This document shows positions 8,203 to 54,906 of a DNA stretch of 64,000 nucleotides, one piece after another (position 1 is the first letter of the stretch; each line of letters opens with the position of its first letter). Source of the DNA: Phototrophicaceae bacterium (GTDB lineage Bacteria > Chloroflexota > Anaerolineae > Aggregatilineales > Phototrophicaceae); assembly GCA_965262335.1 (NCBI GenBank), contig OZ253528.1:84237-148236 (forward strand), in the 5' to 3' direction. The notes under the pieces were generated by a model, which worked only from the letters and a program-made list of their open reading frames with translations, did not search any database and was not told where the DNA came from. Position numbers and translations under genes: made by a program.

Positions 8203-8219
8203 CTGCTCTTCTCGCAGAC

Positions 8220-8927
8220 CTATTCGCTGTCAACGCGCCGCTTGCGCGGACGACGTGTGTTACTGCGCAGCTCTTCCGCGCTCCAACCCTGCTCCATACC
8301 CCATTCCACTTTCGGCTTTAGCGCGCCAGTCGGGCAGACGCCAACGCATTGACCACAAAACACACAAGGCGATTCGGTCATCGAAATATCAAATGCGGTG
8401 GCTACTGATGTCTCATGCCCGCGGTTCTTCAGCGTCAAGGCAAAGGTAAACTGCGCATCCTCGGCGCAGACCTGCACACAGCGCCAACACAAAATACACT
8501 GCTCATAATCTCGCACGTAAAAGGGATTGTCATCAATGACCTCCGCCTCGCGCCGCTGCGCGTCCGGGAAGCGCTCATCATCCGCAGTGTATTCCGACAT
8601 CATGCCCTGAATCTCGGGCGCCTGTTCCAGATTTACCGAGGCATTCAGCATTTCCAGGATGGTCCGCCGGCTGCGCTCGACGCGCTCGTTGCGCGTTTCT
8701 ACTCGAGAATCCGCTTGACACTCTGCCACGCAAGCCGGCTGCAAGACGCGTCCATTATCCACATCCACCACGCAAATGCGGCAGAGTCCGTTGGGTGAGG
8801 TCGCCTCGTGATAGCAGATGACGGGGATCTCCACGCCGGCCTCGCGCGCCGCGTCGAGCAGCGTCGCGCCTTTTGGGACTGTGATCTCTTGGCCGTCCAA
8901 TTCAAGCCGTATCGTTTCTTCGCTCAT
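8220..8927 (-). CDS. [2Fe-2S]/[4Fe-4S] iron-sulfur subunit (NuoG / FdhA N-terminal-module-like), stand-alone
   Basis: Plant-type ferredoxin start (IRLELDGQEITVPKGATLLDAA..CYHE..C..C) followed by CxxCxxC and CxxCxxCxxxCP clusters. ATG 8927 has an AAGGAG RBS; the tracked start 8963 is less likely. Confidence 0.8.
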   Translation of the reverse strand: MSEETIRLELDGQEITVPKGATLLDAAREAGVEIPVICYHEATSPNGLCRICVVDVDNGRVLQPACVAECQADSRVETRNERVERSRRTILEMLNASVNLEQAPEIQGMMSEYTADDERFPDAQRREAEVIDDNPFYVRDYEQCILCWRCVQVCAEDAQFTFALTLKNRGHETSVATAFDISMTESPCVFCGQCVGVCPTGALKPKVEWGMEQGWSAEELRSNTRRPRKRRVDSE

Positions 8928-9200
8928 TTCCCTGCTCCTTTTTGACGGTTGTGCTCGCGACACAGGACTTGGCCGTTTTCGATCAGGGTTTGACCGCCGT
9001 TGCTGTGGGGGAGTACATGGTCAGCTTCGAACGCTGACCAAGGCACTCGTGCTTCATGATCTGACATACCTTCAGCGCGGCATTTTTGGCAAATGCCATT
9101 GTCACGCAGATAGATGGCAATGCGATTCTTTTCTGAGAATGTGCGTTGATTATCTTTGGAGAGCAGCTTAAGGCCTCTTCGTTCAGCGAATCCAAAGAAC

Positions 9201-10328
9201 TCAAGACGGAAAATCTGCTCTCTTAATCTCTACCGCTCGGACATTCTGTTGACGATTCTCTACAAACCGGACCACTTGTTCGGTTGCTCGTGATATTCCC
9301 TTCGTACGTTCAAAGAAATCATATGCGAAATCCCTGAAACATAGTTGTGTCTCATTTGAAAAGACGTAATACTTCAGCAGATGACGTAGCAACAAGTAGC
9401 AAGAAATCGTAAAGTACTCAAAGCGGAATGCTAGGACACCAGTGCCGTAAGTTGTCGTGTCCAAAAGCGGGTCGTCATGAAAGACTTTATACATCTCCTT
9501 GAGATTCTGAAGAACTGCACGGGCCGGCACTTCTTGCTCATAACTTGTGTTTCCAATGCCATCCGCCTGAATCGTTTCGTCAATTAGCGTAACTATATTT
9601 TGATCACCAATATTAGTGGGCCCGCCCGAAATTTCCAAAAGCAGGAAGCGTCCGAGCAGTGTTAGATGTTGCATTCGACTATTGGATCTGGCCCGGGTTT
9701 CTGAAAAAAATCCTAATTTGTGTGGGTTGTCATCTATCGATACATAGGAACTAAAATCAAAATCAGAATCATCGGCATATTTGACAAGGAAATTGCGAAC
9801 CAGACTTGAAAGTCGCGCATGTGCAGTTTCCATCTTGTTAAGCGACTCGCCCTGTTGAAGACGCCAAAAGATTTCGGTGGCTGTCTCTTGATGCCTTGTA
9901 TCGAGTGGATCACTTATATTCTTAATTATATCGACGTCAAACTTTAGTTCTCGGTCAACGAACTTTTTGATCTCCGCGGGTAATCTGGAATACGTGCAAT
10001 TCGGTAAGAGAGTATTGATGTCGGAGAGTGAATCAGGCAAAGGCAGTTCGTCCTGAAAGAATGCTTGAACCGTGTTAATCCTTTGTTGGCCGTCCACAAC
10101 TTCGTACTTAGTTTGCATTTCGCCAAGACGCACTAGGCGGATTACTACACTTGGTATGTAGAAGCGACGGAACAAGCTATCTAGCAGAGCTTGCTGTTTC
10201 TTTCTCTCCCAAACCACCTTGCGCTGATAGGGCGGTCGAGTTTCATATTCATCTGCATAGGCAGAGAAGTCACGAATTCGAATATTTGTTCTCTCAGTGT
10301 CGTATTCTGTTCTTGGATTGAATGCCAT
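9201..10328 (-). CDS. DUF262 (ParB-like nuclease/NTPase fold) domain protein without a DUF1524 domain
   Basis: N-terminal ..RPPYQRKVVWERKKQQALLDSLFRRFYIPSVV.. and ..VVDGQQRINTVQAFF.. match the DUF262 signature. AGGAG RBS lies inside the end of the upstream gene. AT-richer than its neighbours. Confidence 0.8.
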   Translation of the reverse strand: MAFNPRTEYDTERTNIRIRDFSAYADEYETRPPYQRKVVWERKKQQALLDSLFRRFYIPSVVIRLVRLGEMQTKYEVVDGQQRINTVQAFFQDELPLPDSLSDINTLLPNCTYSRLPAEIKKFVDRELKFDVDIIKNISDPLDTRHQETATEIFWRLQQGESLNKMETAHARLSSLVRNFLVKYADDSDFDFSSYVSIDDNPHKLGFFSETRARSNSRMQHLTLLGRFLLLEISGGPTNIGDQNIVTLIDETIQADGIGNTSYEQEVPARAVLQNLKEMYKVFHDDPLLDTTTYGTGVLAFRFEYFTISCYLLLRHLLKYYVFSNETQLCFRDFAYDFFERTKGISRATEQVVRFVENRQQNVRAVEIKRADFPS

Positions 10329-10335
10329 ATTCTCT

Positions 10336-12054
10336 TCACTCCTGTCTGAACAGCGCTGGAAACTTCTCCATCGCGCTCATCACCGCTATCGCCGCCGTAT
10401 GCCCCAAGCCACAAATCGATGCCTCTGTCATTGTCATGCCGATATCATGCAGCCGGTCACGATCGCCCGGCGCGGGAGTATCCAGCCGCTCCAATATCTC
10501 GACCTGACGCTGCGTGCCCAACTGACAGGGAAAGCACTTGCCGCAGCTCTCGTGTTGGAAGAAACGTCCCAGCCGCTTGAGAACATCGCGCAAATCCGTC
10601 GTCTGATTAAAGACCATGATTGCGCCCGAGCCGAAGGTGCTGCCCGCCGCCCGCAAATCCTCGAAAGTCAGCCTGACGTCAATCTCGTCCGGCAGCAAAA
10701 ATGTGCCGGCCGCGCCACCCATCAGAATCGCACCCAACTCACCGACGACACCGCCGCAGATCTCATCGAGAAAATGCCGCAGCGTGATTCCGGGCTCGAT
10801 CTCATAGCAGCCGGGTTTTCCAATATGTCCACTGACCGATACCAGTTTAGTGCCGCTGCTTTGCTCGGTGCCGAACTGCTTGAACCAATCCGCTCCATGA
10901 CTGATAATGCCAGGGATCGCGCACAAGGTCTCGACATTGTTGACCGCAGTCGGCTTGCCGAACAAGCCGAAAGTGGTTGGATACGGTGGTTTCATGCGCG
11001 GGAAGCCGCGTTTGCCTTCAATCGCTTCAAAGAGCGCGGTTTCTTCGCCACAGATATAAGCGCCCGCGCCCCGCCGTATCTCGATGTTCAGCGAGAGTGT
11101 TCCCCCCAACATGCCATCGCCAAGCAAGCCATTCTCTTCCGCTTCTTTTATGGCATTCTGCAGGATCGCGGTCGCTTTAGGATATTCGCCGCGGATGAAA
11201 ATATACGCCTTGTCCGTGCCCACAGCGAAGGCTGCCAGCGCCATACCTTCCAGCAACAGATGTGGATGGTGCTCCATCAACACGCGATCCTTGAAGGTGC
11301 CCGGCTCACTTTCATCGGCGTTACAGACGACATACTTGATCTCGCCCGTCGTTCCACGCGTAAACTTCCATTTCATGCCGGTCGGGAAAGCCGCGCCACC
11401 TCGTCCGATCAAGCCGGAGCCTTCCACTTGCGCGATCACCGCCTCGGGTGTCATACTTGTGATCGCCTTGCGCAACGCCGCATAATCGCCGTAATCAGAC
11501 AGAGACTTCGGTGCTGCTGTCATGTCAGGATCAAGCATCACCGACCCGCCATCACCCGCAGGCGTGAAATAATCGTCTTCCCATTCACCTAACAGCTCAT
11601 CCACTGTCACATTCGCCAGCGCCATATCCGCCTCACCCCGCGCGCTGACCAAAGCCGCCGGCGCATAATCGCACATGCCGAGGCAAGGCGAATGCTCAAC
11701 CGTGTATTCGCCATCAAGAGTGGATTCGTCGGCCGCAATATCCAGCCGGGCGCAAACATCATGCAAAACCTGATCAGCGCCGGACAAGCTGCAAGTGGGA
11801 TCGGTGCAAACCCGGATGATGCGCCGCCCGGTCGGCTGCTCATGAAAAAGCGTGTAGAAGCCGATCACCCCATAGATGTCCGCTTCCGGAACCCGCAATA
11901 AATGTGAGATTTTATGCACATGCTCGGGACTGATACTGCCGCAAGCGCCCTGTACATCCCAAAGTACCGGCAACAACGCCTCGCGCCCACGTCCGTGGTA
12001 GGGCGTGAAGAGGGATGCGATTGAAGGAATTGAAGTTTCTGTATGATTAGTCAT
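10336..12054 (-). CDS. NuoE-NuoF fusion: NAD(H)-binding diaphorase subunit of NAD-dependent formate dehydrogenase
   Basis: N-terminal thioredoxin-like [2Fe-2S] part (..RVCTDPTCSL..SPCLGMCDYAPA..). FMN/NADH part (..GRGGAAFPTGMKW.., ..CNADESEPGTF..) and [4Fe-4S] ESCGKCFPCQLG. ATG 12054 is preferred over the TTG at 12066. Confidence 0.85.
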   Translation of the reverse strand: MTNHTETSIPSIASLFTPYHGRGREALLPVLWDVQGACGSISPEHVHKISHLLRVPEADIYGVIGFYTLFHEQPTGRRIIRVCTDPTCSLSGADQVLHDVCARLDIAADESTLDGEYTVEHSPCLGMCDYAPAALVSARGEADMALANVTVDELLGEWEDDYFTPAGDGGSVMLDPDMTAAPKSLSDYGDYAALRKAITSMTPEAVIAQVEGSGLIGRGGAAFPTGMKWKFTRGTTGEIKYVVCNADESEPGTFKDRVLMEHHPHLLLEGMALAAFAVGTDKAYIFIRGEYPKATAILQNAIKEAEENGLLGDGMLGGTLSLNIEIRRGAGAYICGEETALFEAIEGKRGFPRMKPPYPTTFGLFGKPTAVNNVETLCAIPGIISHGADWFKQFGTEQSSGTKLVSVSGHIGKPGCYEIEPGITLRHFLDEICGGVVGELGAILMGGAAGTFLLPDEIDVRLTFEDLRAAGSTFGSGAIMVFNQTTDLRDVLKRLGRFFQHESCGKCFPCQLGTQRQVEILERLDTPAPGDRDRLHDIGMTMTEASICGLGHTAAIAVMSAMEKFPALFRQE

Positions 12055-12062
12055 CCATAGCT

Positions 12063-13331
12063 TCAATCAACAAGCTTGCCATCACCATCGAAAAACTCCC
12101 ATCCTAAATTTACTGTACACGATTCGTCCCACGTTTGCAGAGCCAAAGCGTCAAGGTTCAAGTTGTACTCATCGTTCAGATAAGCAAGGTACTGTGCGAA
12201 TTTCCGCCTCTCTGTGAGTCGTTCCAACGCTGTATCTTTGTCTGTCCAGTAATGGTATATCAGGGTACAGGAGGATTCCAGAACACCTGCTCTCATGTAA
12301 GCCCCGTCAATGTTACATCGTCCGTAGCTAGCCGTATACAAATCCAGCTCGTCAATGATTCGCTGAGTTTCGCAGTCATTGCTGGCAGGTATTGTTGAAC
12401 CTATTGAGCTTGTACGAGCTGTGACTTCAGGCTTTCGCGTCGCAGTCACTGGGGGCTTTCCGCGCGTCAATAACGAGGAGTGGATGTACTCGTCGGCATC
12501 TGTTCTGGCCCATCGGCTGCTTCCGCTAATAGTTTGACCGTCCTCGAACCCGGTAACATACACGGTTTTCCCAAATTGAACCCGTGCTACCACAGAGCAG
12601 GATGTACTGGCACAGGACCTTACATTTACACCACCTGACCTGCTGATGTAGTAAGTGCCCGCTTCTGGATCAACAGTCGGGCGCGGAGTGCGTGACGAAG
12701 TAGGTATGTTCGTCGGCGAATCCGTTGGGGTGATCGAAGGTGTCGCCGTCAGTATATTAGTTGGTGTAATCGTCGGCCTCACTGTCAATCTCGGCGTAGG
12801 TGTTTTGGTTGCCGTCAGAGTGACTGTTAATTTGTTTCGGGGTGTTAATTGAGTTATCAGTAAAAGTGTATGTGAGGAATTAGATCGCACTTCGAATTTC
12901 AGGGAACGCAGGGGACATATGATATGAAATGCTTTAGCTGCCTCTGATATCAGTGAAGTAAAACATCTTTGCGGAGAAGCCTGGAGTTCGATGTCTGTAT
13001 TTGGAAAATCCTTACCTCTATAATTTGTTTCATCATCGCCGCCTATTCCTACTGTAATAATCGACCATGAACCTTCTTCAAGACCAAGTGTTCCTACAGT
13101 CCGATAGTAGTCAGACTGAAATGTCCGTTCTTTCTTATTCCCCTTCATCAGATAAACTTGAGCTAGGTTGATGAATTCAGCCTCACCAATGTCGATAAAC
13201 AAAACAGGACTTTCTTCAGTTGCCTGATCAAGCGTGTCTTGTGCCAAGACAGGAATATTCAATGTAAGAAAAGCAATCAGCAAGACAAGTATTCGAATCA
13301 TGGAGTACGTCTTTTCAGCGTGTTGGTTCAT
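12063..13331 (-). CDS. Secreted hypothetical protein with Thr/Pro-rich linker and SH3b-like domain
   Basis: Signal-like N-terminus (ILVLLIAFLTLNIPVLAQD), a ~60-aa T/P-rich linker, then YYISRSGGVNVRSCASTSCSVVARVQFGKTVYV..GSSRWAR (bacterial SH3 pattern). Clearly AT-richer than the flanking fdh genes. Confidence 0.55.
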   Translation of the reverse strand: MNQHAEKTYSMIRILVLLIAFLTLNIPVLAQDTLDQATEESPVLFIDIGEAEFINLAQVYLMKGNKKERTFQSDYYRTVGTLGLEEGSWSIITVGIGGDDETNYRGKDFPNTDIELQASPQRCFTSLISEAAKAFHIICPLRSLKFEVRSNSSHTLLLITQLTPRNKLTVTLTATKTPTPRLTVRPTITPTNILTATPSITPTDSPTNIPTSSRTPRPTVDPEAGTYYISRSGGVNVRSCASTSCSVVARVQFGKTVYVTGFEDGQTISGSSRWARTDADEYIHSSLLTRGKPPVTATRKPEVTARTSSIGSTIPASNDCETQRIIDELDLYTASYGRCNIDGAYMRAGVLESSCTLIYHYWTDKDTALERLTERRKFAQYLAYLNDEYNLNLDALALQTWDESCTVNLGWEFFDGDGKLVD

Positions 13332-13356
13332 TTATTTCGTGTTGTCCACTACGGTT

Positions 13357-13965
13357 TCAGCTTCGTTGATGTTCATTGATCCAGTTCTCAGCAGCCGCCA
13401 TTTCAGCCGGCGTATTCAGATTGCTGAAGCACAGCCCGTCTGTGTCATAAGCCGCATAATCCGCCTCATCAAGATATCGCACACGCATCCGGTCGTAGAA
13501 GCGGATGATCTTCAGTCGATTTTGCTTCAACTGTTCGGCAATAGGAGACAAGCAGGTTTTTTTGTAAATCGCGTGCAGTCCTTGTGGATAACCAGCGACG
13601 CGCGGCACTACAATATCTGTCGCCTCGTCCATCTGCTCGATCATGAAGCTCAACATATCCGGCTTGATGAAGGGCATGTCGCAAGCCAGCACCAGCACAT
13701 CGGCTTTGTCAGCCTTCGTCAGCGCAGTGTAAATCCCGCCCAGTGATCCTTTGTCGGGATGAACATCCGCGAACATTTCCAACCCGAGATGCCGATAGTC
13801 GTCGGTTCTGTTGGTTATCAGCAGCGTCTCCGATTGTCTCAGATCGGCAGTCCGCTCAATGACATGCTCGATCATGGCTTTGCCGCCCAACTCGACAAAG
13901 GCTTTGTCGCGCCCCATGCGCCGGCTCTTGCCACCTGCGATTATTGCGAGGGAGACTTCGGTCAT
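13357..13965 (-). CDS. mobA: Molybdenum cofactor guanylyltransferase MobA
   Basis: ..AIIAGGKSRRMGRDKAFVELGGK.. and ..VLACDMPF.. are MobA hallmarks. Start ATG overlaps the hepT stop (ATGA). Confidence 0.85.
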   Translation of the reverse strand: MTEVSLAIIAGGKSRRMGRDKAFVELGGKAMIEHVIERTADLRQSETLLITNRTDDYRHLGLEMFADVHPDKGSLGGIYTALTKADKADVLVLACDMPFIKPDMLSFMIEQMDEATDIVVPRVAGYPQGLHAIYKKTCLSPIAEQLKQNRLKIIRFYDRMRVRYLDEADYAAYDTDGLCFSNLNTPAEMAAAENWINEHQRS

Positions 13966-14321
13966 GACGCATCGGCCTCAAGGATGTGCTCCAAATCGTC
14001 GATTAGCGGCGGCATGTGTTCGGTTGCCGTCTGCCAGATCACGTCCAAGTCAATGGCATAGTAGACATGGACCAGTCGATGGCGCATTCCGATTATGTCA
14101 GGCCATGGAATGGTCACGTAACCTCGTCTTGTATCGGCCGTGACGCTATTGGCAGCTTCTCCGATGATTTGCAGAGTTCTTGCCAATGCAAGCTGTAGCA
14201 TCCGGTTTCTGTCGAGCGACTGGCGCGATTCACCCGTAGCAATGCGTTCAGTGTATCGCGCCCATTCCAACATGTGAAGCAAACGGGTCGGATCATTCTC
14301 GCGAGTTTTGGACAAAAACAA
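13962..14321 (-). CDS. hepT: HepT (DUF86) family toxin, HEPN RNase
   Basis: ..LQIIGEAANSV..IPWPDIIGMRHRLVHVYYAIDLDVIW.. contains the Rx4HxY HEPN motif typical of DUF86. Confidence 0.8.
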   Translation of the reverse strand: MFLSKTRENDPTRLLHMLEWARYTERIATGESRQSLDRNRMLQLALARTLQIIGEAANSVTADTRRGYVTIPWPDIIGMRHRLVHVYYAIDLDVIWQTATEHMPPLIDDLEHILEADAS

Positions 14322-16849: not shown

Positions 16850-16904
16850 CAAGAAGCAGCCTCCAGCTACTTCGCGCAGCCAAAATCTGCGATATGAGCG
16901 AATA

Positions 16905-16933
16905 TTGCATACAATGTTAGAAAGTTATATAAT
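16905..16933 (+). promoter_or_regulatory. Candidate sigma70-type promoter for the 17095 gene
   Basis: Plus strand reads TTGCAT, 17 nt, TATAAT in an AT-rich divergent intergenic region. Confidence 0.45.
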
Positions 16934-17094
16934 TCTACGAAATATGGAGCGTGGCGAGAGTCACACTTCTGGACGAAACAAGCTATTCGCGCCAAACTCA
17001 TGACAAAAAACTTAGCGTAATGCCTATTCTTGAGGTACTATTTTGCTAATTATCTATTACTAGTAAGGCTTACTCATTTGATTGATGTTATAAT

Positions 17095-19260
17095 ATGAAT
17101 AAATACTTTGATCTCGGTGGCATGCATGCCAAATCCTCATGGTTGACGAGATGTCTGCTCATGCTACTGTGTGTATTGTTCTCCGGTGCTGCGCCGGTTC
17201 TGAGCCAGGGCAACCCGGAGCCGGCCGCCTGTGGTCTGCCGGTCGGTGGCATCATCTTTTCGTCAGTTACCTACTCGCTTTCTGCCGACTGTATCCAGAC
17301 TAGCGTTCTTCAAGTGAACGCCGGGATAACACTGACCATCAATGGCGCCGGCCACAGCATCAGCGGCGGTAGTTATACTCTGATTCTAGGAGCTGCCACC
17401 AGCACCTTGAATCTGAATCAGTTGTCTTTTGATGGTGAAGATATCAGTCGCACATCAATGGTCGGTGTTGCTGGAAGCCTAAGCGCGAATAGCGTCACGT
17501 TTCGGCGCGGATCCAGTGGTGTCGCCCTGAATGTAGTCGGGGCGGCGACGCTGACAAATATGCTGTTTGATGGCAACGTGGGTGCAGCGTTTAGTCCAGG
17601 AAATGGAGTAGCGCTGAATATCGTCGCTGGTGCAACTGTCACCATGACAGATTCTGTAGTTCGAAACAATCATTACGTCGGCGGCGCGATCGCCGTACAC
17701 GGTGATGGTTCGTTCACCGCCAACGGCTGCCTGACATTCTCCGGCAACCTCCCGTACAACGTCGCTGGAGACTGGACGGACAACAGCACGGGCGCCTGTA
17801 GTGGAACGGTCGGAAACGGCGGGTCTGCGGTCATCGCGCCTCCAGCCTTGCTCAGCTGTGGCTTGCCCGGAAAGGGAAATCTGGACAGATCGACCAGCTA
17901 TACCTTACGATCTGACTGCGATCTTAGTGCGAGCGGAGCTAGTCAGTACTTGTGGACCGTTTCTGAAGGCGTGTCGATTACTGTACAAGGCAATGGTTTC
18001 AGCATTATCGGCGGCCACGGCGGCTACCTTTCCGTTATCCAAACCGCCGCAGGCGGCACTCTTACTTACCGCAATGTAATAGTGGAAAGTACAATATTCA
18101 TCTTATTCGGCGATATCGTCTCCGAATTCAGCACATTCAGGAACACGCGTGACCGAGTGTTTGCATCCGAGGCTATCGCCACGTTTTCAAACACCCTCTT
18201 TGAAAACAACTCCACGAGTCGAAGCTCCGGCAATGCATCTGTCTTCTATAATTTACCTGATTATGGAGGGGGGCATGCCACCTTTACGAATGTCGTTTTC
18301 CGCAACAACATGGGCACCGGCGGCGCTCCCGTATTGAACACGTTTGGGTCTGCCACCATCACCCTGAACGGCTGCATCACCTTTGACAACAATTCGCCAG
18401 CCAATTTCTCCGGCAATGTGACCGACAACAGTATCGCCTGTGCTGACGATATCGTCATCGGTCCTACCGGTCCTACCGGTCCTGTTCCTGATGAGCCGCG
18501 CAATTCCCCGTCGGAGCCTGAGCCTAAAGGCGTCGTCGTGGTCGTGCGCCGCAAGCCGGAGAATTGCTTCCAGAAACTGGGCGCCATCGGTATTATCTGT
18601 CGCCCGCCGAATCGTCCCGATGCCACGCTTGAAATCTGGGGTGTCACCGCTGAAAGCGAAGGCTTCTTCATCATGGAGCTGAGGCAATCGCAGGTCGAGT
18701 CCCAGCAGTCGCAAGGCCTGGTAGCAAGTTCGCCGGACGGGCGCGTGGCGATGCGGGTCACTGGATCGGAGTGCATCATACGCGATAGCAATAACGTTCC
18801 GCGCGTCAGCGGACCGGAATGTGTCGCCGCGCGGTTGACGCAAGGCTCGGGCGCAGCCATCGGGTCACAGCGGTTTATCATCGTCTCAATGGGCCTCACC
18901 TTCGAAGGCAAAGTACACAGCGTCGTTTTCGATAACAGTCTGGCCGGGCACGTGATCGGCACGGTCGATACCTTCACCGGTCTGCCGGGCGTCGTCGCCA
19001 CTCCCGCAGACACGCCAGACGCGTCCACAGAAACATCCGCGGAAACGGCGTCCACAACCACAGCATATGCACAGCCGGTGTCTGCGCAGCCGCCCCGCGC
19101 TGACGGCTCTATCATCCATATAGTGCAACCGGGCGACACCGTCAATGCCATAGCCTTGACATACAAGGTGAGCGCAGCTGAGATCATAGTACGCAACCAG
19201 CTTGCGGACCGCAATTACATCACGATCGGGCAAGAATTGGTTGTCCGCGACGCCAACTAA
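17095..19260 (+). CDS. Secreted protein with beta-helix-like repeats and a C-terminal LysM domain
   Basis: Signal peptide (LLMLLCVLFSGAAPVLSQG). Repeated ..N.V.F..N.. segments (..TNMLFDGNVGA.., ..FSNTLFENNST.., ..FTNVVFRNNMG..). C-terminal HIVQPGDTVNAIALTYKVSAAEIIVRNQL..ITIGQELVV is a LysM pattern. Confidence 0.7.
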   Translation: MNKYFDLGGMHAKSSWLTRCLLMLLCVLFSGAAPVLSQGNPEPAACGLPVGGIIFSSVTYSLSADCIQTSVLQVNAGITLTINGAGHSISGGSYTLILGAATSTLNLNQLSFDGEDISRTSMVGVAGSLSANSVTFRRGSSGVALNVVGAATLTNMLFDGNVGAAFSPGNGVALNIVAGATVTMTDSVVRNNHYVGGAIAVHGDGSFTANGCLTFSGNLPYNVAGDWTDNSTGACSGTVGNGGSAVIAPPALLSCGLPGKGNLDRSTSYTLRSDCDLSASGASQYLWTVSEGVSITVQGNGFSIIGGHGGYLSVIQTAAGGTLTYRNVIVESTIFILFGDIVSEFSTFRNTRDRVFASEAIATFSNTLFENNSTSRSSGNASVFYNLPDYGGGHATFTNVVFRNNMGTGGAPVLNTFGSATITLNGCITFDNNSPANFSGNVTDNSIACADDIVIGPTGPTGPVPDEPRNSPSEPEPKGVVVVVRRKPENCFQKLGAIGIICRPPNRPDATLEIWGVTAESEGFFIMELRQSQVESQQSQGLVASSPDGRVAMRVTGSECIIRDSNNVPRVSGPECVAARLTQGSGAAIGSQRFIIVSMGLTFEGKVHSVVFDNSLAGHVIGTVDTFTGLPGVVATPADTPDASTETSAETASTTTAYAQPVSAQPPRADGSIIHIVQPGDTVNAIALTYKVSAAEIIVRNQLADRNYITIGQELVVRDAN

Positions 19261-19292
19261 GACTAGCTGACACCTAAACAAAACGTAAAGTT

Positions 19293-19328
19293 GGGATGGC
19301 AATGTCATCGCTTGGCTTTCCCTTTTTT
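19293..19328 (+). terminator. Candidate intrinsic terminator after the LysM gene
   Basis: GGGATGGC..GCTTTCCC imperfect stem (one mismatch, one G-U) followed by TTTTTT. Confidence 0.4.
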
Positions 19329-19433
19329 CTATCGCCGCCTGACGTCGCAGTTTGACCGGCAAAGGGTGCGCTTTGCCTCAATCGTGGTTAAAATGATGTC
19401 GATATCATCAACAGCGATAGAGGGACACAAACT

Positions 19434-19754
19434 ATGACCTACCAAGCCAATGAGCCCCTGCCCAAGAGCATGTCCGCTATCGTCTGCCACGGACCCGAAG
19501 ACTACCGAATTGGAGAATGGCAAGTGCCGGAACCCGGCGCCGGCGAAGTCGTCATCCGCGTGCAATCGGTGGGCATCTGCGCCAGCGACCTCAAGTGCTA
19601 TCAAGGCGCGCCGCTCTTTTGGGGTGATGATACGCGCCAGGGTTACTGCCAGCCGCCGGTCATACCGGGCAGCAAGTTTGTCCACACGGGTTTGAAGCCC
19701 CTCCCTCTTAAAGGAACCGAGGCGCGGATCCGTAGTTTTTGCCACTTACAATAG
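19434..19754 (+). pseudogene. Truncated 5' copy of the Zn-ADH gene at 20565
   Basis: 19434..19669 equals 20565..20800 apart from 3 synonymous substitutions. After the repeat the frame reads GSKFV.. instead of GHEFV.. and stops at 19754. Confidence 0.85.
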
Positions 19755-19780
19755 CTAAAGCGCAATTAGGGGGAGTTCTT

Positions 19781-20449
19781 ATGGATATCGACGGTACTAG
19801 GAGAGGTATAATTCCCGGCCTCATATCTGGATATCTATTCCTTGCCTATGCAGGTCCGGCGATACAAGATATGACTGGGGACATGTTAAGCGCTGATTCC
19901 CTTGTCGGCTTCGTCTTGCATACCGTTATCAGTATCGTTATCGGCGCCCTTTACACCGGTGTGTTCATGCTGTACGTGGACTTGGGCAGTCCGACGTTGA
20001 ATATCCTAATTGGAGGTTCGATCTACGGACTGATCTGGTGGATCATCGGCGTCAATATCATCGTGCCCATCCTAACTGGCGGCCAGGTCTTGCAGCTTTC
20101 CATCGGGCCTAGTTTCTACGGACACATCATCTTTGGGCACACGCTCGCCTTCCTGGTCGTCCTGCGAGAAGCAGTTTATCTTGCTCGTGATTACCAATAT
20201 TTGCGCAAGAGTGAACATCCTGCTGGATTTATCTATAATATTTCTGACCCTATATCCGGGCTCGTAAAAATTGGACGAACCATTAATCCAAAACAACGCA
20301 TGCAACAACTCCAAAGCGAGCACGGGAAGCAATTGAGATACTCAAGCCTGATGAAATCAGATAACGCGCCGAAAGATGAAAGACGTTTGCACAAGAAATA
20401 CGCTTCTAGGCGAAAAGATGGAGAATGGTTCGACATGAGCGAAGAATAG
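19781..20449 (+). CDS. Membrane protein (about 4 TM helices) fused to a C-terminal T5orf172/MUG113 (GIY-YIG-like) domain
   Basis: ATG 19781 is preceded by GGGGGAG. Hydrophobic N-terminal ~150 aa. C-terminal GFIYNISDPISGLVKIGRTINPKQRMQQL..RRLHKKYASRRKDGEWF. AT-richer than the flanks. Confidence 0.75.
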   Translation: MDIDGTRRGIIPGLISGYLFLAYAGPAIQDMTGDMLSADSLVGFVLHTVISIVIGALYTGVFMLYVDLGSPTLNILIGGSIYGLIWWIIGVNIIVPILTGGQVLQLSIGPSFYGHIIFGHTLAFLVVLREAVYLARDYQYLRKSEHPAGFIYNISDPISGLVKIGRTINPKQRMQQLQSEHGKQLRYSSLMKSDNAPKDERRLHKKYASRRKDGEWFDMSEE

Positions 20450-20564
20450 ACAGGTCAAGAAATGAATTACCTCTCTAGTCATTTCGCCAATTATATGAGC
20501 GAATACTGGAATGCGGAAACTACAGAGTTGTGACGTAATAAGCAAACCGAAAAAGGAAACATTA

Positions 20565-21665
20565 ATGACCTACCAAGCCAATGAGCCCCTGCCCAAGAGC
20601 ATGTCCGCTATCGTCTGCCACGGACCCGAAGACTACCGAATTGGAGAATGGCAAGTGCCGGAACCCGGCGCCGGCGAAGTCGTCATCCGCGTGCAATCGG
20701 TGGGCATCTGCGCCAGCGATTTGAAGTGCTATCAAGGCGCGCCGCTCTTTTGGGGTGATGATACGCGCCAGGGTTACTGCCAGCCGCCGGTCATACCGGG
20801 ACACGAATTTGTCGGCGAAGTGGTGGCATTAGGCGAAGGCGCGGGCGAAAAGTACGGCTTGGCATTGGGCGATAACGCCGTCTCCGAACAGATCGTGCCT
20901 TGCTGGAATTGCCGCTTCTGCAAGCGCGGTCAATATTGGATGTGCCAGGACAAGCACGATGTCTACGGCTTCCGTCAAGCCACCGTTGGCGCCATGGCGG
21001 AATATATGCTTTTCCCGGTCGGCGCCCTGAATTACAAAGTCCCCGATACCCTGCCGGCCCATCATGCCGCTTTCATCGAGCCGCTCGGCTGCTCCATCCA
21101 TGCCGTGCAACGTGGCGAAATCGAACTTGATGATGTGGTGGTGATCGCCGGTTGCGGACCGCTCGGTTTGGGTATGGTGGCTGCCGCAAGGCTAAAGAAT
21201 CCGGGCCTGTTGATCGCCATCGACTTGAACGACGACCGCTTGGAAATCGCCGAACTCTGCGGCGCTGATATGCGCATGAATCCGCGTAAAATCGATGTCA
21301 TCGACGAAGTGCTAAAACTGACCGAGGGCTACGGCTGCGATGTCTATATCGAAGCCACCGGTTACCCCGCCGCCGTGCTGCAAGGCTTGCAGATGATCCG
21401 CAAGCTCGGCACCTTTGTCGAATTCAGCGTCATGCGCGAGCCGGTCACCGCCGATTGGACCATCATCGGCGATACCAAAGAACTCAATATCCACGGCTCC
21501 CACCTTAGCCCCTATACCTATCCCATCGCTATCGATATGCTGAGCAAAGGATTGCTGCCCATGGACCGCATCATGACGCATCAGCTGCCCCTGAGCAGTT
21601 TCCACGCTGGTATGGATATGGTCGCTGCTGGCACGGAATCGGTAAAAGTCACCTTAACGCCTTAG
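20565..21665 (+). CDS. Zn-dependent medium-chain alcohol/polyol dehydrogenase (sorbitol/threonine dehydrogenase-like)
   Basis: GICASDLK, GHEFVGEV catalytic-Zn motif, structural-Zn Cys cluster C..C..C.......C (CWNCRFCKRGQYWMC), GCGPLGL Rossmann motif. Confidence 0.85.
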   Translation: MTYQANEPLPKSMSAIVCHGPEDYRIGEWQVPEPGAGEVVIRVQSVGICASDLKCYQGAPLFWGDDTRQGYCQPPVIPGHEFVGEVVALGEGAGEKYGLALGDNAVSEQIVPCWNCRFCKRGQYWMCQDKHDVYGFRQATVGAMAEYMLFPVGALNYKVPDTLPAHHAAFIEPLGCSIHAVQRGEIELDDVVVIAGCGPLGLGMVAAARLKNPGLLIAIDLNDDRLEIAELCGADMRMNPRKIDVIDEVLKLTEGYGCDVYIEATGYPAAVLQGLQMIRKLGTFVEFSVMREPVTADWTIIGDTKELNIHGSHLSPYTYPIAIDMLSKGLLPMDRIMTHQLPLSSFHAGMDMVAAGTESVKVTLTP

Positions 21666-21694: not shown

Positions 21695-22426
21695 TTGACC
21701 AACCAACTTGCCGATAAAGTCGTCATCATCACCGGCGCTAGTTCCGGCATCGGCGAAGCCTGTGCCCGCCTACTCGCCCAACAGGGCTGCAAACTCACGC
21801 TGGCCGCCCGTTCCGTCGACAAGATGGAAGCGCTCGCTGCCGAGTTATCGACGGAAAGTTTAGTCGTACCTGCCGACATGACCCAGCCCGCTGACATATC
21901 CAACATGGTGCAACGCACCCTTGATCACTTCGGGCGTATTGATGTGATGTTGGCGAATGCCGGCATTTATATCAAAGGGCAGTTTGCCGACGGCGACATC
22001 AATGACTTATGCACTTTGCTCAAGATCAATGTCGATGCCGTTTTGCGCTGTGCCCACGCCGTCATCCCGCAGATGAAAGCGCAAGGCAGCGGAGATATCA
22101 TCGTCAGCAGTTCTGTCTCCGGACATCACGATATTCACGGTGAACCGATCTATAGCGCCAGCAAAAACGCCGTGCAGACCTTCGTGCATACCGTTCGACG
22201 TCAATTGGCGGGTGATGGCATTCGCGTCATGTCCCTGGCGCCGGGCCCGATTGCCAATCCTCTATTGGGTTTCCATGATGCTGAGGATATCCGGCGCGTA
22301 TCGGAGGATGACCGCGCCTATTTGACCTCCGTCGATTGCGCGGAGGTGATTCTCTTCATGCTTTCCCGTCCGCCCCATGTGACCATCCGCGATTTGGTCA
22401 TGCTGCCACAAATCGACCGAGTCTGA
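21695..22426 (+). CDS. SDR oxidoreductase, tandem paralog 1
   Basis: KVVIITGASSGIGEA, NAG, YSASK catalytic motif. 243 aa. Confidence 0.85.
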   Translation: MTNQLADKVVIITGASSGIGEACARLLAQQGCKLTLAARSVDKMEALAAELSTESLVVPADMTQPADISNMVQRTLDHFGRIDVMLANAGIYIKGQFADGDINDLCTLLKINVDAVLRCAHAVIPQMKAQGSGDIIVSSSVSGHHDIHGEPIYSASKNAVQTFVHTVRRQLAGDGIRVMSLAPGPIANPLLGFHDAEDIRRVSEDDRAYLTSVDCAEVILFMLSRPPHVTIRDLVMLPQIDRV

Positions 22427-22473
22427 CCAAAGGCTGTTCCATTCTCTTGTCGTATTGAATTCGAGGAACTTCA

Positions 22474-23208
22474 ATGAGCAATTCACTGGAAGGTAAAGTC
22501 GTCATCATCACAGGAGCCAGCTCTGGCATCGGCGAAGCCTGTGCCCGCCTGCTCGCTGAGTACGGCTGCAAACTCACGCTGGCCGCCCGCTCTGTCGACA
22601 AGATGGAAGCGCTCGCTGCCGAGTTGTCCGCGGAATGTTTGGTCGTCCGCGCCGATATGACCGTGCCACAGGATATTGCGGCCATGATCGACCGCACTCA
22701 AGATCATTTCGGACGGATTGATGTCATGTTTGCCAATGCCGGCGTCTATATCGACGGCGAATTTGCCGATGGTGACCCCGATGCCTTTTCGGACTTGCTC
22801 ACGATCAATATCGACGCGGTCCTGCGCTGTGCCCATGGCGTCATCCCGGCGATGAAAGAACAGGGCGGTGGCGATATCGTCGTCACCAGCTCGATTTCCG
22901 GTTTCGGGGATATACATTGGGAACCGATCTATAGCATGAGCAAGCACGCCGTGCAGACCTTTGTGCATACAGTGCGTCGACAATTGGCTGGTGATGGCAT
23001 TCGCGTGATGTCGCTAGCGCCGGGCGCCGTCGCCAATCCACTATGGGGATTTCACGATGCCGCGGAAATCGAGCGCGTCTCGGCCGGCGAGCGCAGTTAT
23101 CTGGCATCCGAAGATTGTGCCGAAGCGCTGGTCTTTATGCTGACTCGGCCGAAACATGTCACCATCCGCGACCTGGTGATCTTGCCGCAAAATCAGGTAA
23201 ACGTCTGA
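22474..23208 (+). CDS. SDR oxidoreductase, tandem paralog 2
   Basis: KVVIITGASSGIGEA, YSMSK. Collinear with paralogs 1 and 3 along its whole length. Confidence 0.85.
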   Translation: MSNSLEGKVVIITGASSGIGEACARLLAEYGCKLTLAARSVDKMEALAAELSAECLVVRADMTVPQDIAAMIDRTQDHFGRIDVMFANAGVYIDGEFADGDPDAFSDLLTINIDAVLRCAHGVIPAMKEQGGGDIVVTSSISGFGDIHWEPIYSMSKHAVQTFVHTVRRQLAGDGIRVMSLAPGAVANPLWGFHDAAEIERVSAGERSYLASEDCAEALVFMLTRPKHVTIRDLVILPQNQVNV

Positions 23209-23222
23209 TGGTGCCGGGGAAT

Positions 23223-23954
23223 ATGCGCAACCCGCTGGCGGGCAAAGTCGTCATCATCACCGGTGCCAGTTCCGGCATTGGTGCTGCTGCGGCTCGTCTG
23301 CTCGCCCAATACGGCTGCCAACTCACGCTGGCCGCCCGCTCTGTGGACAAGATGACAGCTCTCGCCGCGCAATTGGCCACCGAGTCCCTCGTCTTCCGCG
23401 CTGATATGAGCGTTCCGGCTGATATTATCGCCATGGTGGAGCGGACTCTGGAGCGCTTCGGCCGGATTGATGTGATGTTCGCCAATGCCGGCGTTTTTAT
23501 TATGGGTGATTACGCATCCGGCGACCCCGACGCATATTCCAACTTGCTCAAGGTAAACGTGGACGCCGTTTTGCGCTGTGCTCATGCTGTCATTCCTATC
23601 ATGAAAGCACAAGGCTCTGGCGATATTCTGGTCACCAGCTCAATCGCCGGTCATGCCGAACTGCACCTGGGACCGGTCTACGGCGCCTCGAAACACGCGA
23701 TCCAGACCATGGTGCATACCCTGCGGCGACAATTGGCTCAAGACGGCATTCGCGTGATGTCGCTGGCGCCCGGCCGGGTTGCAAACGAATTATGGGGTTT
23801 GACTGATCCGCAGGAAATCGAGCGCTTGACCGTAGCCGAACACGCTTACCTGAAGGTCGAAGATGTCGCCGAAGCCGCTGTCTTTATGTTAAGCCGACCA
23901 AGTCACGTGACTATCCGCGATATCCTGATGTTGCCGCAGAAACAGGATGTGTAG
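23223..23954 (+). CDS. SDR oxidoreductase, tandem paralog 3
   Basis: MRNPLAGKVVIITGASSGIG parallels MTNQLADK.. and MSNSLEGK.. of the other two, so ATG 23223 is preferred over 23208 or 23043. YGASK motif. Confidence 0.8.
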   Translation: MRNPLAGKVVIITGASSGIGAAAARLLAQYGCQLTLAARSVDKMTALAAQLATESLVFRADMSVPADIIAMVERTLERFGRIDVMFANAGVFIMGDYASGDPDAYSNLLKVNVDAVLRCAHAVIPIMKAQGSGDILVTSSIAGHAELHLGPVYGASKHAIQTMVHTLRRQLAQDGIRVMSLAPGRVANELWGLTDPQEIERLTVAEHAYLKVEDVAEAAVFMLSRPSHVTIRDILMLPQKQDV

Positions 23955-23990: not shown

Positions 23991-24707
23991 CTAAAGGCGT
24001 TCTTTTTTGAGGTAGAGTCGGCAGATAGCCAATGGAGAAACCCGGAATTTCGTGCCGTGGTTGCGCAATCCTACGCTACCGGGCTTGTTTTCTCGGCAAT
24101 CAAAATCAATAGCAATCGCACCACGGAGGACTTCTTGCACAAAGTCTGCCAGATGAAAAGTCTCATACGCTTCTGCATATAGAAAGCGCACGCTGCGTTT
24201 TTTTGCTTCGCCCTTCACCAAGATCAAACGGCGTAATTTTGCCCCTGCTGCCGCGATCAATTCGTCGTAAGACCAATAAGGTGCCGGCCCCTTGACGTGT
24301 TTCGGACGCACTATTATCCGTCTCGCACTGTCATCAGCCTTAACTCTGAATAACGCCGACTCTCCCTCCACCGTATGGCGAAAACTCAATCGATCGCGCT
24401 GGTCTTTCCAGCCGTAAGCGCGAACCATTTCGCGCATCACGTTTTTGGGTCCTTTGGCTTCCTTGTGGAACAGCGTAATCAGCCGGGTGCGTTTGCTAAA
24501 CCATTTCATTTCCCAGCCGACGGCGTCTGGGATATCCATCGATCCTGCTGTTAGCCCAAGCAGATCCTCTAAAAACATACCCGCCGCCCCAGTCCCTTGA
24601 TAGCGAGAGCCTTCCGGCATATGGTACGGTCCATGATCAGTGACGGTACGAATACGATCAAACAATTGGTCTTTGCTACGAGGAGGTTTGCTGGGAAAGT
24701 CGATCAT
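23991..24707 (-). CDS. Type II restriction endonuclease, MvaI/BcnI (MutH-like) family candidate
   Basis: ..GAAGMFLEDLLGL..DIPDAVGWEMKW..LITLFHKE.. (D..ExK) and the C-terminal ..HGTKFRV.. resemble R.BcnI as I recall it. Start ATG overlaps the methylase stop (TAATG). Confidence 0.55.
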   Translation of the reverse strand: MIDFPSKPPRSKDQLFDRIRTVTDHGPYHMPEGSRYQGTGAAGMFLEDLLGLTAGSMDIPDAVGWEMKWFSKRTRLITLFHKEAKGPKNVMREMVRAYGWKDQRDRLSFRHTVEGESALFRVKADDSARRIIVRPKHVKGPAPYWSYDELIAAAGAKLRRLILVKGEAKKRSVRFLYAEAYETFHLADFVQEVLRGAIAIDFDCRENKPGSVGLRNHGTKFRVSPLAICRLYLKKERL

Positions 24708-25477
24708 TATTGCAATTTGTTTATGCTCTTGATTCGTTCGCGAGCCAATTCGCAATATTCTTCACTGACGTCTATGCCAATCCATTGACGCCGCGAGTTC
24801 TCGGCAGCAATAGCAGTTGTGCCCGAACCCATGAAAGGATCAAGCACCACTTTCGCGTTGGTCGAATCAACACACCTCTGAGCGAGCGCTAGAGGAAAAG
24901 GCGCCGGATGCGGATTCTTGCTCTCTTGAGGGATTTGCCAAACATCGCCTTGCGCATTGGCTTTAGGCGCCAGCCGAAAGTTGGGCTTGGCTATCAAGTA
25001 AAGCACTTCGTATGTAGGCAAGAAATAGCCCGGATTAAAGTTGATCCCACCACTTCGTTGCCAAATGATTATCTGCCGCACAGGAAAACCATCAACGATG
25101 TCTGCGCGGTCTTGCAGCAGTCCCCGCTGAACACGCCATTTGTGGTTGTAGAAGATCGCGCCATCATCACTTAACACTCTCATCATGGCGTCCAGACAAT
25201 CTCGTTGCCAGGCAACATATTTGTCGTGGGGCATAGCATCGTCGTGATTCGCATATCCCTTGATGAGTTCCGCCTGCGGCCATTTACCCCCACTGCCATT
25301 CTTTAGACCATTGCCCGTGCTGTTTTTTATGTTATACGGAGGGCTTGTAACGAAAAGGTCAACAGAAGCGGCCGGCATTTGATTCATCAACTCGATACAA
25401 TCTCCTTGATGAACCTTGCCTAACCAATGTTCAATGCCAACTTGTGAGGTCAGACCTGGATGTACTTCTACTGCCAT
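24707..25477 (-). CDS. Beta-class N4-cytosine/N6-adenine DNA methyltransferase
   Basis: Motif IV DLFVTSPPY precedes motif I VLDPFMGSGTTAIAA (N6_N4_Mtase order). ATG 25477 has a GGGAG RBS. Confidence 0.85.
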   Translation of the reverse strand: MAVEVHPGLTSQVGIEHWLGKVHQGDCIELMNQMPAASVDLFVTSPPYNIKNSTGNGLKNGSGGKWPQAELIKGYANHDDAMPHDKYVAWQRDCLDAMMRVLSDDGAIFYNHKWRVQRGLLQDRADIVDGFPVRQIIIWQRSGGINFNPGYFLPTYEVLYLIAKPNFRLAPKANAQGDVWQIPQESKNPHPAPFPLALAQRCVDSTNAKVVLDPFMGSGTTAIAAENSRRQWIGIDVSEEYCELARERIKSINKLQ

Positions 25478-25860
25478 GACTACACTCCCTAGCACAATTG
25501 TACTATTTTAGCGCTTGCAATGCTAGTTTTATCGGGCTTCGGTCCTCAGTCTTCAGGCTGCTAGTTGCAACAATTCCTTGTCTACACCGGTTACCTTCTC
25601 CCATGCAAGCGCCGCGCCGCCGCCAAACTCCGCGGCACAGCCATCGTCGCCTTCCAGCCGGTAAGGCAGTCCGTCTGGCATCAGCTATGCCAACGATCTT
25701 ACAGCGACCGGCCTGGGCAGCGTATGCCCGCAGATGCGTCCCTGGCCCCACCCTTGTATATAATTGAATGGGAGCAACATCGATACTGATGACTATGACC
25801 TGTGCCAATCACGTTTTCAAAATTGCTATCCCGCTGCGTTGCGCTGGATGATAGCGTCTT

Positions 25861-51905: not shown

Positions 51906-52204
51906 TCGCTGCGCGGAAAATCGGCAGCGCCACCATTTCCGGCACCTCCTTCTCCAACAATACCGCGGCTGAAGGTCCCGATCTCCTGTCCATTGATGCC
52001 GAGATCACCTTGCAGCCATCCAACTCCATGAGCGCGCAGGGTTACGTCAGCAAGTAAGTCCGTAACACAATCAAGCCCGCCCGGATTATCGAGGCGGGCT
52101 CCTGCTTTCCACGTAAGTTTGTATTTTGACGCGAAAATCTGCACGTTTGCGTTTCCGACGTAGCCGATGTAGAGTACGGTAGCCGCGTGTACACGGAGAC
52201 TACA

Positions 52205-53674: not shown

Positions 53675-53684
53675 GAAATACTAG

Positions 53685-54461: not shown

Positions 54462-54630
54462 GCTCAGATCTTGATATTGCATTCCCTTTTCTGTCCTCGT
54501 CCGCATATGTCGTTATGCCGGATCTACCCGCGACCAAACAGTCGCCACCCCACACCCCAACCCTGCTACCCTGACCTCAACCCGCGCCTTAACAACCGCA
54601 TACGCGTTTCCCCATACCGCCACGCAGATG

Positions 54631-54671
54631 GCCAGATGGCCGAAAAACATTTCTGACAGCGGCCATCTGGC
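54631..54671. repeat. Perfect 12-bp inverted repeat with 17-nt spacer
   Basis: GCCAGATGGCCG ..17 nt.. CGGCCATCTGGC, in the gap between the R-M island and the PhyH gene. Confidence 0.6.
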
Positions 54672-54906
54672 AATAAAAGCATCCCGTGGTTATGGCAAGA
54701 AGCGAGCATGGCATTATTGCAGCATAGCCTATGTGTCGTAAAACGTGTTTTCATCCCGACACAAGAACGACACAAAGCCCAACCTTTTCCCAACCACAAG
54801 GTCGAGTCACCCTTCTGCCAAGCCTTAAGGCGGGACTTGGCGCGTGATTGGCATTTCCACCTCCGACCATCTATCATTACGCTAGCTTATACGAGGAGAA
54901 AAGCCT

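Follow-up and report, generated by a model that had tools for sequence, protein, structure and literature searches.

A duplicated dehydrogenase gene start in a Phototrophicaceae bacterium as a probable recombination scar between operon alleles with and without a membrane-T5orf172 gene

We analysed a stretch of 64,000 nucleotides (nt) from a Phototrophicaceae bacterium of the Chloroflexota (GenBank GCA_965262335.1, contig OZ253528.1, positions 84,237 to 148,236 of the forward strand; hereafter the window), in which the 5' end of a gene for a zinc-dependent alcohol dehydrogenase (ADH) is present twice. Between the two copies lies a gene, here called T, whose product carries a T5orf172/MUG113 domain. 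We propose, at a probability of roughly 0.6, that the duplication is a hybrid junction, or recombination scar, between a T-less and a T-bearing haplotype of the 5' end of the operon that ADH forms with short-chain dehydrogenase/reductase (SDR) genes. We read the structure as joining two alleles because the leader of the first copy (leader 1) is of the type found at T-less loci, the leader of the intact gene (leader 2) is common to T-bearing loci, and the first 25 nt differ between the two copies in L003, a relative with the same arrangement (L numbers denote the loci compared with the window).

Aligned copy to copy, 19434..19669 and 20565..20800 match at 233/236 positions. The only mismatches, at 19589, 19590 and 19592, set GACCTC against GATTTG, both of which encode Asp-Leu. 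The ATG is the first codon of either copy, and the 40 bases 5' of each are mutually unrelated. Identity stops at 19669/20800, right before the GHE codons, and a weaker match (8/13) continues to 19682/20813; TTTGTC, a possible microhomology, is present at 19677-19682 and again at 20808-20813. The upstream open reading frame (ORF; 19434..19754) has 106 amino acids (aa), reads ...GSKFV... without the GHE zinc-ligand motif, and has an ADH_N match limited to residues 35-82, while the downstream ORF is a complete 366-aa medium-chain dehydrogenase/reductase (MDR) (Pfam: ADH_N 1e-22, ADH_zinc_N 4e-19). The G+C content is 0.467 between the repeats, 0.549 in the whole window and 0.623 in the repeat. An initial annotation, made from the window's letters without database searches, had described the 236-bp duplication with three mismatches and both copies starting at the ATG, the end of identity before GHE with a truncated upstream and a complete downstream ADH, the lower-G+C insert with one T5orf172/MUG113 gene, and a separate leader and ribosome-binding site (RBS) for the intact ADH; all of these were borne out by the alignment, the ORFs, Pfam matches above the cut-offs and the comparison of leaders.

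Collapsed or chimeric reads could in principle produce such a repeat, and the generic risk that repeats pose in metagenome assemblies is all that speaks for an artefact. The arrangement is also present in another assembly of this strain (ENA ERZ25068833, L001), which over 13.1 kb shows 11 indels and 0 mismatches relative to the window. L003, which comes from a third sample and is ~5% diverged from the window, has identical junctions and compensating differences in both copies. We consider an assembly artefact ruled out by these three assemblies from three samples, and assign it a negligible likelihood. The contig names resemble those of long-read (HiFi) assemblies, so that the 1.4-kb structure would presumably fit within single reads. 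A search of JGI metagenome contigs with a 33-mer spanning the junction returned no match. The features of the locus are listed in the table.

Table. Features of the duplicated ADH start and the T insert (window coordinates).
Feature	Position	Strand	Basis or remark
Leader 1	19261..19433	+	native T-less-type promoter and 5' untranslated region (UTR) of the ADH operon
Upstream copy of ADH nt 1-236, inside the truncated ORF	19434..19669	+	233/236 to 20565-20800; same junction in L003
Tail between ADH remnant and T	19670..19780	+	19670-19682 residual ADH similarity (junction zone, GSKFV); remainder non-ADH
Gene T, 222 aa	19781..20449	+	membrane domain residues 1 to ~137; T5orf172/MUG113 domain ~146-222
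Leader 2, T-ADH spacer	20450..20564	+	replacement RBS AAAAAGGAAAC at 20550-20560 for the intact ADH; T-bearing haplotype
Downstream copy of ADH nt 1-236, 5' end of the functional gene, with GATTTG at 20720-20725	20565..20800	+	alignment
Intact Zn-dependent MDR dehydrogenase, 366 aa	20565..21665	+	Pfam, NCBIfam; first conserved gene of the ADH-SDR-SDR-SDR cluster

The two leaders differ in kind. Leader 1 has a -35-like element (GGTGCGCTTTGCC, 19365-19377), a -10 element TAAAAT within 19388-19395 and an RBS (AGAGGGAC, 19419-19426), with 39 nt from the -10 to the ATG; the terminator-like hairpin of the preceding LysM gene lies inside it (19295-19309), and just its last ~52 nt are common to the window and L003. 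The same architecture precedes ADH at the T-less loci L008-L011, L014, L017, L021, L022 and L028, where the -35 is of the TTTTGAAT or GGTGCGAT type, the -10 is TAnAAT, the RBS is AAAGGA-type, and the ATG lies 38-41 nt after the -10. Leader 2 is unrelated to leader 1; it is 97% identical in L003 and has recognisable homologues in L015, L016 and L005. The tail contains the RBS of T (GGGGGAG, 19769-19775) and is 92.8% identical to the tail of L003. Apart from this, 19670-19780 gave no significant match; a 19-nt match to the region 5' of the L021 ADH promoter (E 0.08) was not significant. The tail probably also holds a decayed copy of the operon promoter (GTTTTTGCC at 19735-19743 and TACAAT at 19747-19752, with a spacer that is too short), and its 3' part (19735-19780) resembles the -10 and UTR 5' of T in L091, although these short similarities, seen by eye, are suggestive only. 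Because the T-proximal promoter copy looks decayed, the stub, T, leader 2 and the intact ADH are probably all transcribed from the native promoter. Short G+C-rich palindromic repeats (e.g. TGTAGGGGCGACCCATTGGGTCGCCC; CCCCTCCC...GGGGAGGGG) occur in the intergenic spacers of this locus among relatives (L004 9818-9887 and 10662-10764; L028 5454-6000; L023 5685-6000), and GAAGCCCCTCCCTC in the window tail (19693-19707) is a fragment-like relative of them.

Orthologues of the ADH at 86-93% aa identity were found in metagenome-assembled genomes of Phototrophicaceae/Aggregatilineales, and these loci show T to be an optional gene. T lies directly 5' of ADH in 13 further loci (L003, L004, L005, L007, L012, L015, L016, L027, L091, L093, L095/96, L097 and L139), and is absent within 6 kb of 14 close ADH orthologues (86-93% aa) and of all more distant ones and outgroups. 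Its distribution on the ADH tree is patchy, with sister pairs of opposite state (L007/L009, L004/L011 and L015-16/L017-18, T-bearing member first), and both states are found with either of the common upstream neighbours, a divergent formate dehydrogenase (FDH) gene or an MFS transporter gene. T-bearing loci keep the promoter of T-less loci 5' of T, and in L091 and L093 the ATG of T lies 41-43 nt past the -10; by its position, the unit of T and leader 2 is inserted at the ADH start codon, with the ATG of T where that of a T-less ADH lies. Homology resumes at the ADH ATG in the L007/L009 pair, with the first ~20 nt of ADH still different, and 14 nt 5' of the ATG in the L015/L017 pair. The empty site that the initial annotation envisaged has counterparts in the T-less loci with a leader-1-type promoter; none of the 14 close T-less loci carries a partial ADH duplication. 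A profile scan of JGI metagenome contigs with T found mostly stand-alone membrane proteins and one more T-ADH locus (L097), and when the window's ADH protein was looked up by exact match, to find an allele from which T had been excised, only T-bearing contigs were on record.

T is 43-67% identical at the protein level where ADH is 89-96% identical, and the two are weakly correlated (r 0.34). It is decayed at several loci, by a stop after 55 aa in L012, a frameshift in L015, a truncation in L016 and the loss of the C-terminal EWF motif in L007, as is also expected of any dispensable gene. The initial annotation pictured a cassette that invades the gene. T is no recent arrival: 13 further ADH loci have it in this very position, and it is much more divergent than its flanks. 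Partial ADH duplications occur at 3/14 T-bearing loci, with 2 breakpoints, and at 0/14 close T-less loci; the 11 other T-bearing loci have no stub. The third case, L139, has a native-type promoter and leader, ADH nt 1-68 (a 52-aa ORF), a 93-nt spacer, T (63% identical to that of the window) and then the full ADH; its copies match at 51/52 positions over nt 17-68 and are divergent over nt 1-16. L006 has a T homologue (8001-8735; 56% identical) whose neighbours on either side are an enolase-superfamily gene and recJ rather than ADH, and no duplication of an ADH or recJ 5' end was found there.

The two copies have evolved in concert. Over nt 1-236, comparison of the window with L003 gave 16 genome-specific and 0 copy-specific sites, copy-specific sites being confined to nt 237-243; the upstream copy of L003 has 9 private differences at nt 6-25, an unconverted edge. 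Identity is 233/236 and 223/236 within genomes versus 209/236 and 214/236 between them. Given the shared junctions and the concerted sites, the duplication is older than the separation of the lineages leading to the window and to L003, and gene conversion has acted on the copies within each genome. As in other short direct repeats under concerted evolution, copies within a genome are closer than orthologues and divergence is seen only at the edges of homology; nothing here is unusual apart from the possibility that recombination between the repeats could also excise T precisely, restoring a T-less allele.

The three mismatches fall within 4 nt, for which the probability under uniform placement is ~3e-4. 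The initial annotation was right that this clustering is non-random; its proposal that the change marks a cleavage-resistant allele did not hold. L003 has GACCTC in both copies despite an intact T, and the same wobble sites vary among T-bearing and T-less alleles, GATTTG occurring in distant T-less orthologues as well, so we rejected an immunity mark. Among the window, L003 and L004, GATTTG is found only in the functional copy of the window; the site reads GACCTC in the upstream copy of the window and in both copies of L003, and GACCTA in L004. By this comparison GATTTG is the derived state. No local donor of GATTTG was found in the window, and no substitution in ADH nt 1-330 is diagnostic of T-bearing versus T-less alleles. 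A single multi-nucleotide event, or two synonymous events in quick succession, after the last conversion is the most plausible origin of the change.

In the recombination that we favour, two haplotypes would coexist in the Phototrophicaceae/Aggregatilineales clade, a T-less one consisting of promoter, ~40-nt leader and ADH, and a T-bearing one with T and leader 2 between the native leader and the ADH ATG. A T-bearing allele would have contributed DNA that became joined, in the common ancestor of the window and L003, to a T-less allele by a homologous exchange on the right, within ADH, and an illegitimate joint on the left, linking T-less ADH at nt 236-249 (the GHE codons) to sequence ~100 nt 5' of T. 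This would be a homology-anchored, one-sided recombination between a donor and a recipient with no shared upstream context, and the pairing of a homologous anchor with an illegitimate joint is well established (PMC3240628). The same topology would also result if a circularised fragment integrated in the Campbell manner. Both routes are favoured where upstream sequence is not shared, and the region 5' of ADH is indeed highly variable. The product would have been the native promoter, a dead 106-aa ADH stub, T, leader 2 and the intact ADH; gene conversion has since homogenised the copies within each genome, and the change from GAC CTC to GAT TTG followed later in the functional copy. The first codons of the copies differ in L003 (upstream MTYHARES, downstream MTYQAN) and in L139 (upstream MNYLAN, downstream MKYCSH), and because the first 16-25 nt differ in this way we conclude that the copies come from different alleles. 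The sequences lend support to the stub being a remnant of the resident T-less allele and the intact ADH 5' end belonging with T and leader 2. L139 supports the same reading as an independent recurrence of this topology with another breakpoint (nt 68). The putative nuclease of T may or may not have provoked the recombination.

Several points weigh against this reconstruction. The illegitimate joint and any microhomology at it (perhaps TTTGTC) are putative, and 19683-19734 has no significant match outside L003. The transfer may have gone either way, with T-bearing DNA entering a T-less genome or the reverse. It is possible that a single ancient duplication was trimmed differently in L139, in place of two independent events. 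That stubs are confined to T-bearing loci (3/14 vs 0/14) hints that T promotes them, although these counts carry no statistical weight. The published homology-facilitated illegitimate recombination (PMC3240628) resembles the window in having one junction in homologous sequence, here the right one in ADH, and one between unrelated sequences, here the left, and in requiring neither a recombinase nor shared upstream sequence; it differs in that it usually replaces recipient DNA next to the anchor, whereas here the joint lies inside the anchor gene and 236-249 nt are duplicated.

A more active role for T is conceivable. T would then be a free-standing homing endonuclease of the T5orf172 type that cuts the 5' coding region of T-less ADH; repair would copy T together with flanking ADH, and where upstream homology is missing, one-ended repair and illegitimate rejoining would leave an ADH stub whose breakpoint marks the site of the cut or of resection. 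The T5orf172/MUG113 domain with its conserved GIY-, KIGRT-, Arg and Glu positions is consistent with this, as are the fixed site of T beside a conserved gene, its patchiness among close relatives, its decay in L012, L015, L016 and L007, the position of the window breakpoint at highly conserved GHE codons, and the existence of a second stub-bearing locus (L139), with stubs found only beside T. T5orf172 genes of phages have been proposed to be free-standing homing endonuclease genes (HEGs) that lie beside conserved genes at boundaries of genetic exchange (PMC10448857), and SegB, a GIY-YIG HEG, is reported to cause duplication of nearby DNA, its own gene included (PMC13096335). Synonymous divergence (dS) between the window and L003 is 0.077 in T, below the 0.20 of ADH and FDH (few sites); because sliding identity between the two shows no clear step at the cassette borders, we do not over-interpret this. 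On the other hand, T has no DNA-binding domain but a conserved four-helix membrane domain in that place, and its low identity and weak correlation with the flanking ADH, which make its alleles look far older than their flanks, are the opposite of what recent horizontal spread would leave. ADH nt 1-330 carries no signature of resistant and sensitive alleles, the two breakpoints (nt 68 and nt 236-249) are unlike, and the fold match to I-TevI/UvrC is not significant (TM 0.45-0.49, E > 1). We therefore regard active homing at this locus as rather unlikely. The broader proposition, that membrane-anchored T5orf172 proteins are a cellular family of chromosomal, recombination-provoking (homing-like) nucleases that are directed at the start of a single conserved operon, cut or nick the T-less ADH 5' region from the membrane despite having no classical DNA-binding domain, spread with a replacement 5' end and leave stubs (nt 68; nt 236-249) where upstream homology is lacking, is to our mind less likely still. 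Nuclease-driven mobility of T is thus possible, and passive one-sided recombination explains the anatomy equally well. Of the mobile cassette with a replacement 5' end proposed in the initial annotation, what stands is an optional unit of T, leader 2 and ADH 5' end; self-mobility is no more than a possibility.

Two further explanations leave T without a part in making the repeat, or make the repeat part of an element. Slippage or unequal crossing-over could have produced a partial tandem duplication of promoter, leader and ADH nt 1-249 in situ, unrelated to T, which was either already there or arrived later by ordinary allelic exchange. The region does seem prone to duplication, with three tandem SDR paralogues and restriction-modification modules inserted among them, and a second upstream copy would leave promoter-like fragments such as those in the tail. 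However, leader 1 and the T-proximal promoter remnant are of unlike types, the first 16-25 nt of the upstream and downstream copies differ in L003 and L139, and no T-less genome has such a duplication, so we judge this improbable; the initial annotation had likewise doubted simple slippage, and the upstream copies do keep a T-less leader type and, in L003 and L139, different first codons. The direct repeats also flank a low-G+C insert that restores the interrupted gene, as might a cassette integrated by a recombinase, with the repeats as attachment sites, or by an RNA-based mechanism such as that of an intron. We consider this very improbable: the repeats, 236 nt long and in concerted evolution, are no att cores, no repeat at all is present at the 11 remaining T-bearing loci, and neither integrase, transposase nor relaxase is present in or beside the insert. 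In agreement with the initial annotation, which saw no integrase, transposase or intron core, the region at 15-26 kb of the window yielded neither an integrase nor a transposase domain, the insert being a single ORF, and no Rfam intron or other RNA family matched 18800-21200 at E <= 1. The hybrid junction between T-less and T-bearing alleles remains the explanation that we prefer.

The T protein itself has an unusual architecture. A profile search of 19781..20449 confirmed the nuclease-like C-terminus that the initial annotation had recognised: residues 149-222 match MUG113 (3.8e-14, 53.4 bits, cut-off 22.3) and T5orf172 (6.1e-11, 43.2 bits, cut-off 20) in Pfam. What it had missed is that residues 1 to ~137 form four long hydrophobic helices, a membrane domain (AlphaFold2 whole-protein pLDDT 82.9), in which neither a Zn finger nor a helix-turn-helix was found. 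The membrane domain has ~73% identity to a stand-alone protein (139-141 aa) that is widespread in the same clade, shares the MNSDDMRRG... N-terminus of T, has a weak DUF1440/YagU-like match and is encoded adjoining gyrA. In L088 (5001-5426), and also in L089 and L090, the gene for the stand-alone protein lies next to gyrA in a housekeeping neighbourhood. By this sequence similarity, the N-terminal domain of T is a copy (paralogue) of a housekeeping membrane protein. The full membrane-T5orf172 fusion was found in ~25 protein clusters at 50-94% identity. In the tree of membrane domains, stand-alone proteins sit on short branches and fusions on long ones, and two fusions nest among the stand-alone proteins; the membrane domain of the L006 homologue groups with longer (157-aa) stand-alone proteins, which suggests a separate fusion or conversion by a resident paralogue.

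The C-terminal domain was modelled by AlphaFold2 with a pLDDT of 86 and the topology b-b-a-b-a-b. Both domains of T have invariant residues. Among 26 members of the T family, G149, KIGRT163-167, P170, R173 and E200 are invariant, and Y152 is nearly so; a GIY-like Tyr, a YIG-like motif, an Arg and a Glu of the catalytic type are thus conserved, as putative equivalents of the catalytic residues of I-TevI. A fold search with the domain (Foldseek) placed I-TevI (1ln0, TM 0.49), UvrC (1yd6, TM 0.47) and Slx1 (7cq3) among the best matches, all at E > 1, and the domain had no sequence match in the PDB; the full-length structure gave meaningless helical-bundle matches only, which we discarded. Relatives of the T5orf172 part number 3,721 in a representative library (E <= 0.001) and come in many architectures, and the membrane fusion is limited to few clusters. 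Its closest phage relatives are <= 39% identical, and no similarity of the cassette to phages was found at the DNA level. The G+C content at third codon positions is 0.43 in the C-terminal domain of the window T versus 0.70 in ADH, and 0.33-0.59 in the T5orf172 part across loci (0.33-0.46 in 10/11) versus 0.67-0.85 in ADH.

Most likely, T is a dispensable conflict-type gene, selfish or defensive. We do not call it a defence gene on the basis of PADLOC, in which the T5orf172 domain matched the candidate family PDC-S57 too weakly (4e-4). A defence or other conflict role is as plausible as a homing role; the neighbourhood holds HepT/MNT pairs and restriction-modification modules and, in relatives, GmrSD and Mrr. 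The membrane-T5orf172 architecture is undescribed.

Among known systems, the closest in domain content are the putative free-standing T5orf172 HEGs of ICP1-like, T5-like and other phages (Barth, Dunham & Seed 2023, PMC10448857). T shares with them the domain, a GIY-YIG subfamily, as well as conserved-gene neighbours, variable presence, frequent decay and a position at an exchange boundary. It differs from them in having a four-helix membrane domain where theirs carry Zn-finger repeats of the CapR/DUF723 type, and in being chromosomal in Chloroflexota, more divergent than its flanks and, in the domain, no more than 39% identical to its best phage relatives. In free-standing homing of the seg/mob type, the cut can fall hundreds of bases from the insertion point. 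In T-even phages, free-standing GIY-YIG and HNH enzymes of this type mediate intron-less homing with co-conversion of markers (reviewed in PMC2988022; for mobE, PMC2790892). The likeness is that of an intergenic endonuclease gene next to a conserved gene and transferred along with that gene's flank; unlike here, the usual outcome of such homing is a replaced flank without a duplicated stub, and at this locus no cleavage site, no pair of resistant and sensitive alleles and no recent transfer came to light. The segmental amplification provoked by SegB in phage T6 (PMC13096335) also involves a free-standing GIY-YIG enzyme, duplications of its own gene with part of a neighbour, and microhomology joints, but those are tandem arrays formed under laboratory defence pressure, whereas here a single ancient 1.2-copy structure joins two alleles.

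The surroundings of the operon are variable. After ADH, the three tandem SDR paralogues (21695-23954) are 66-78% identical to one another in nucleotide sequence, and the first of them has a patch at ~22150-22600 that is divergent between the window and L003 (70-86% identity, dS 0.53), which suggests exchange among paralogues or with foreign alleles. Directly behind the SDR genes, on the minus strand (23991-25495), the window has an MvaI/BcnI-type restriction endonuclease paired with an N4/N6 methyltransferase; the same pair, fragments of it or second copies lie between SDR copies in L004, L091, L093 and L095, and L005 has an Mrr-like gene. On the other side, the segment from the FDH promoter region to leader 1 is lineage-specific (window 16854-19381, L003 5833-6506): in the window it encodes a secreted repeat protein of 721 aa with a LysM domain at its end, and in L003 it holds an ORF of 141 aa that is unrelated. 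What lies 5' of ADH in other relatives is large secreted repeat proteins (FN3-type or beta-helix-type), an ABC ATPase or a Dam-like methylase. The upstream border of the operon is an insertion hotspot. Just 5' of the ADH promoter of the T-less L009, 109 nt (5712-5820) are 94% identical to a segment (4771-4879) that lies ~3 kb further upstream in the T-bearing L007, and may represent a small repeated or transposed element. Beyond the FDH gene, two to four tandem HepT/MNT (nucleotidyltransferase) pairs, which are toxin-antitoxin-like, are found in L003 (2065-3548), L004 (3447-5628), L091 and L093; L004 also has a GmrSD-like gene, and the wider region is rich in conflict systems. Other stretches of the window with lower G+C (0.44-0.49 versus 0.55 overall) are 9001-10000, 12001-14000 and 52001-55000.

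The locus thus combines known kinds of feature, an allelic accessory gene and a probable recombination scar, with a new one, the membrane-T5orf172 architecture. If the duplication is indeed a junction between T-less and T-bearing alleles, it would be a natural example of an accessory gene moving between alleles without a recombinase, in which a gene start was duplicated while the operon stayed expressed from its old promoter, and in which gene conversion keeps a dead stub identical to the live gene. The insertion of T would be reversible, because recombination between the repeats would excise it precisely. The T family is the more interesting by-product: a GIY-YIG-like domain joined to a copy of a housekeeping membrane protein, evolving severalfold faster than its neighbours and decaying repeatedly. 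Should T turn out to be a nuclease that stimulates recombination where its own gene resides, the range of selfish genes of the homing type would widen from phages and organelles to include bacterial chromosomes, and the protein would be of a very unusual design.

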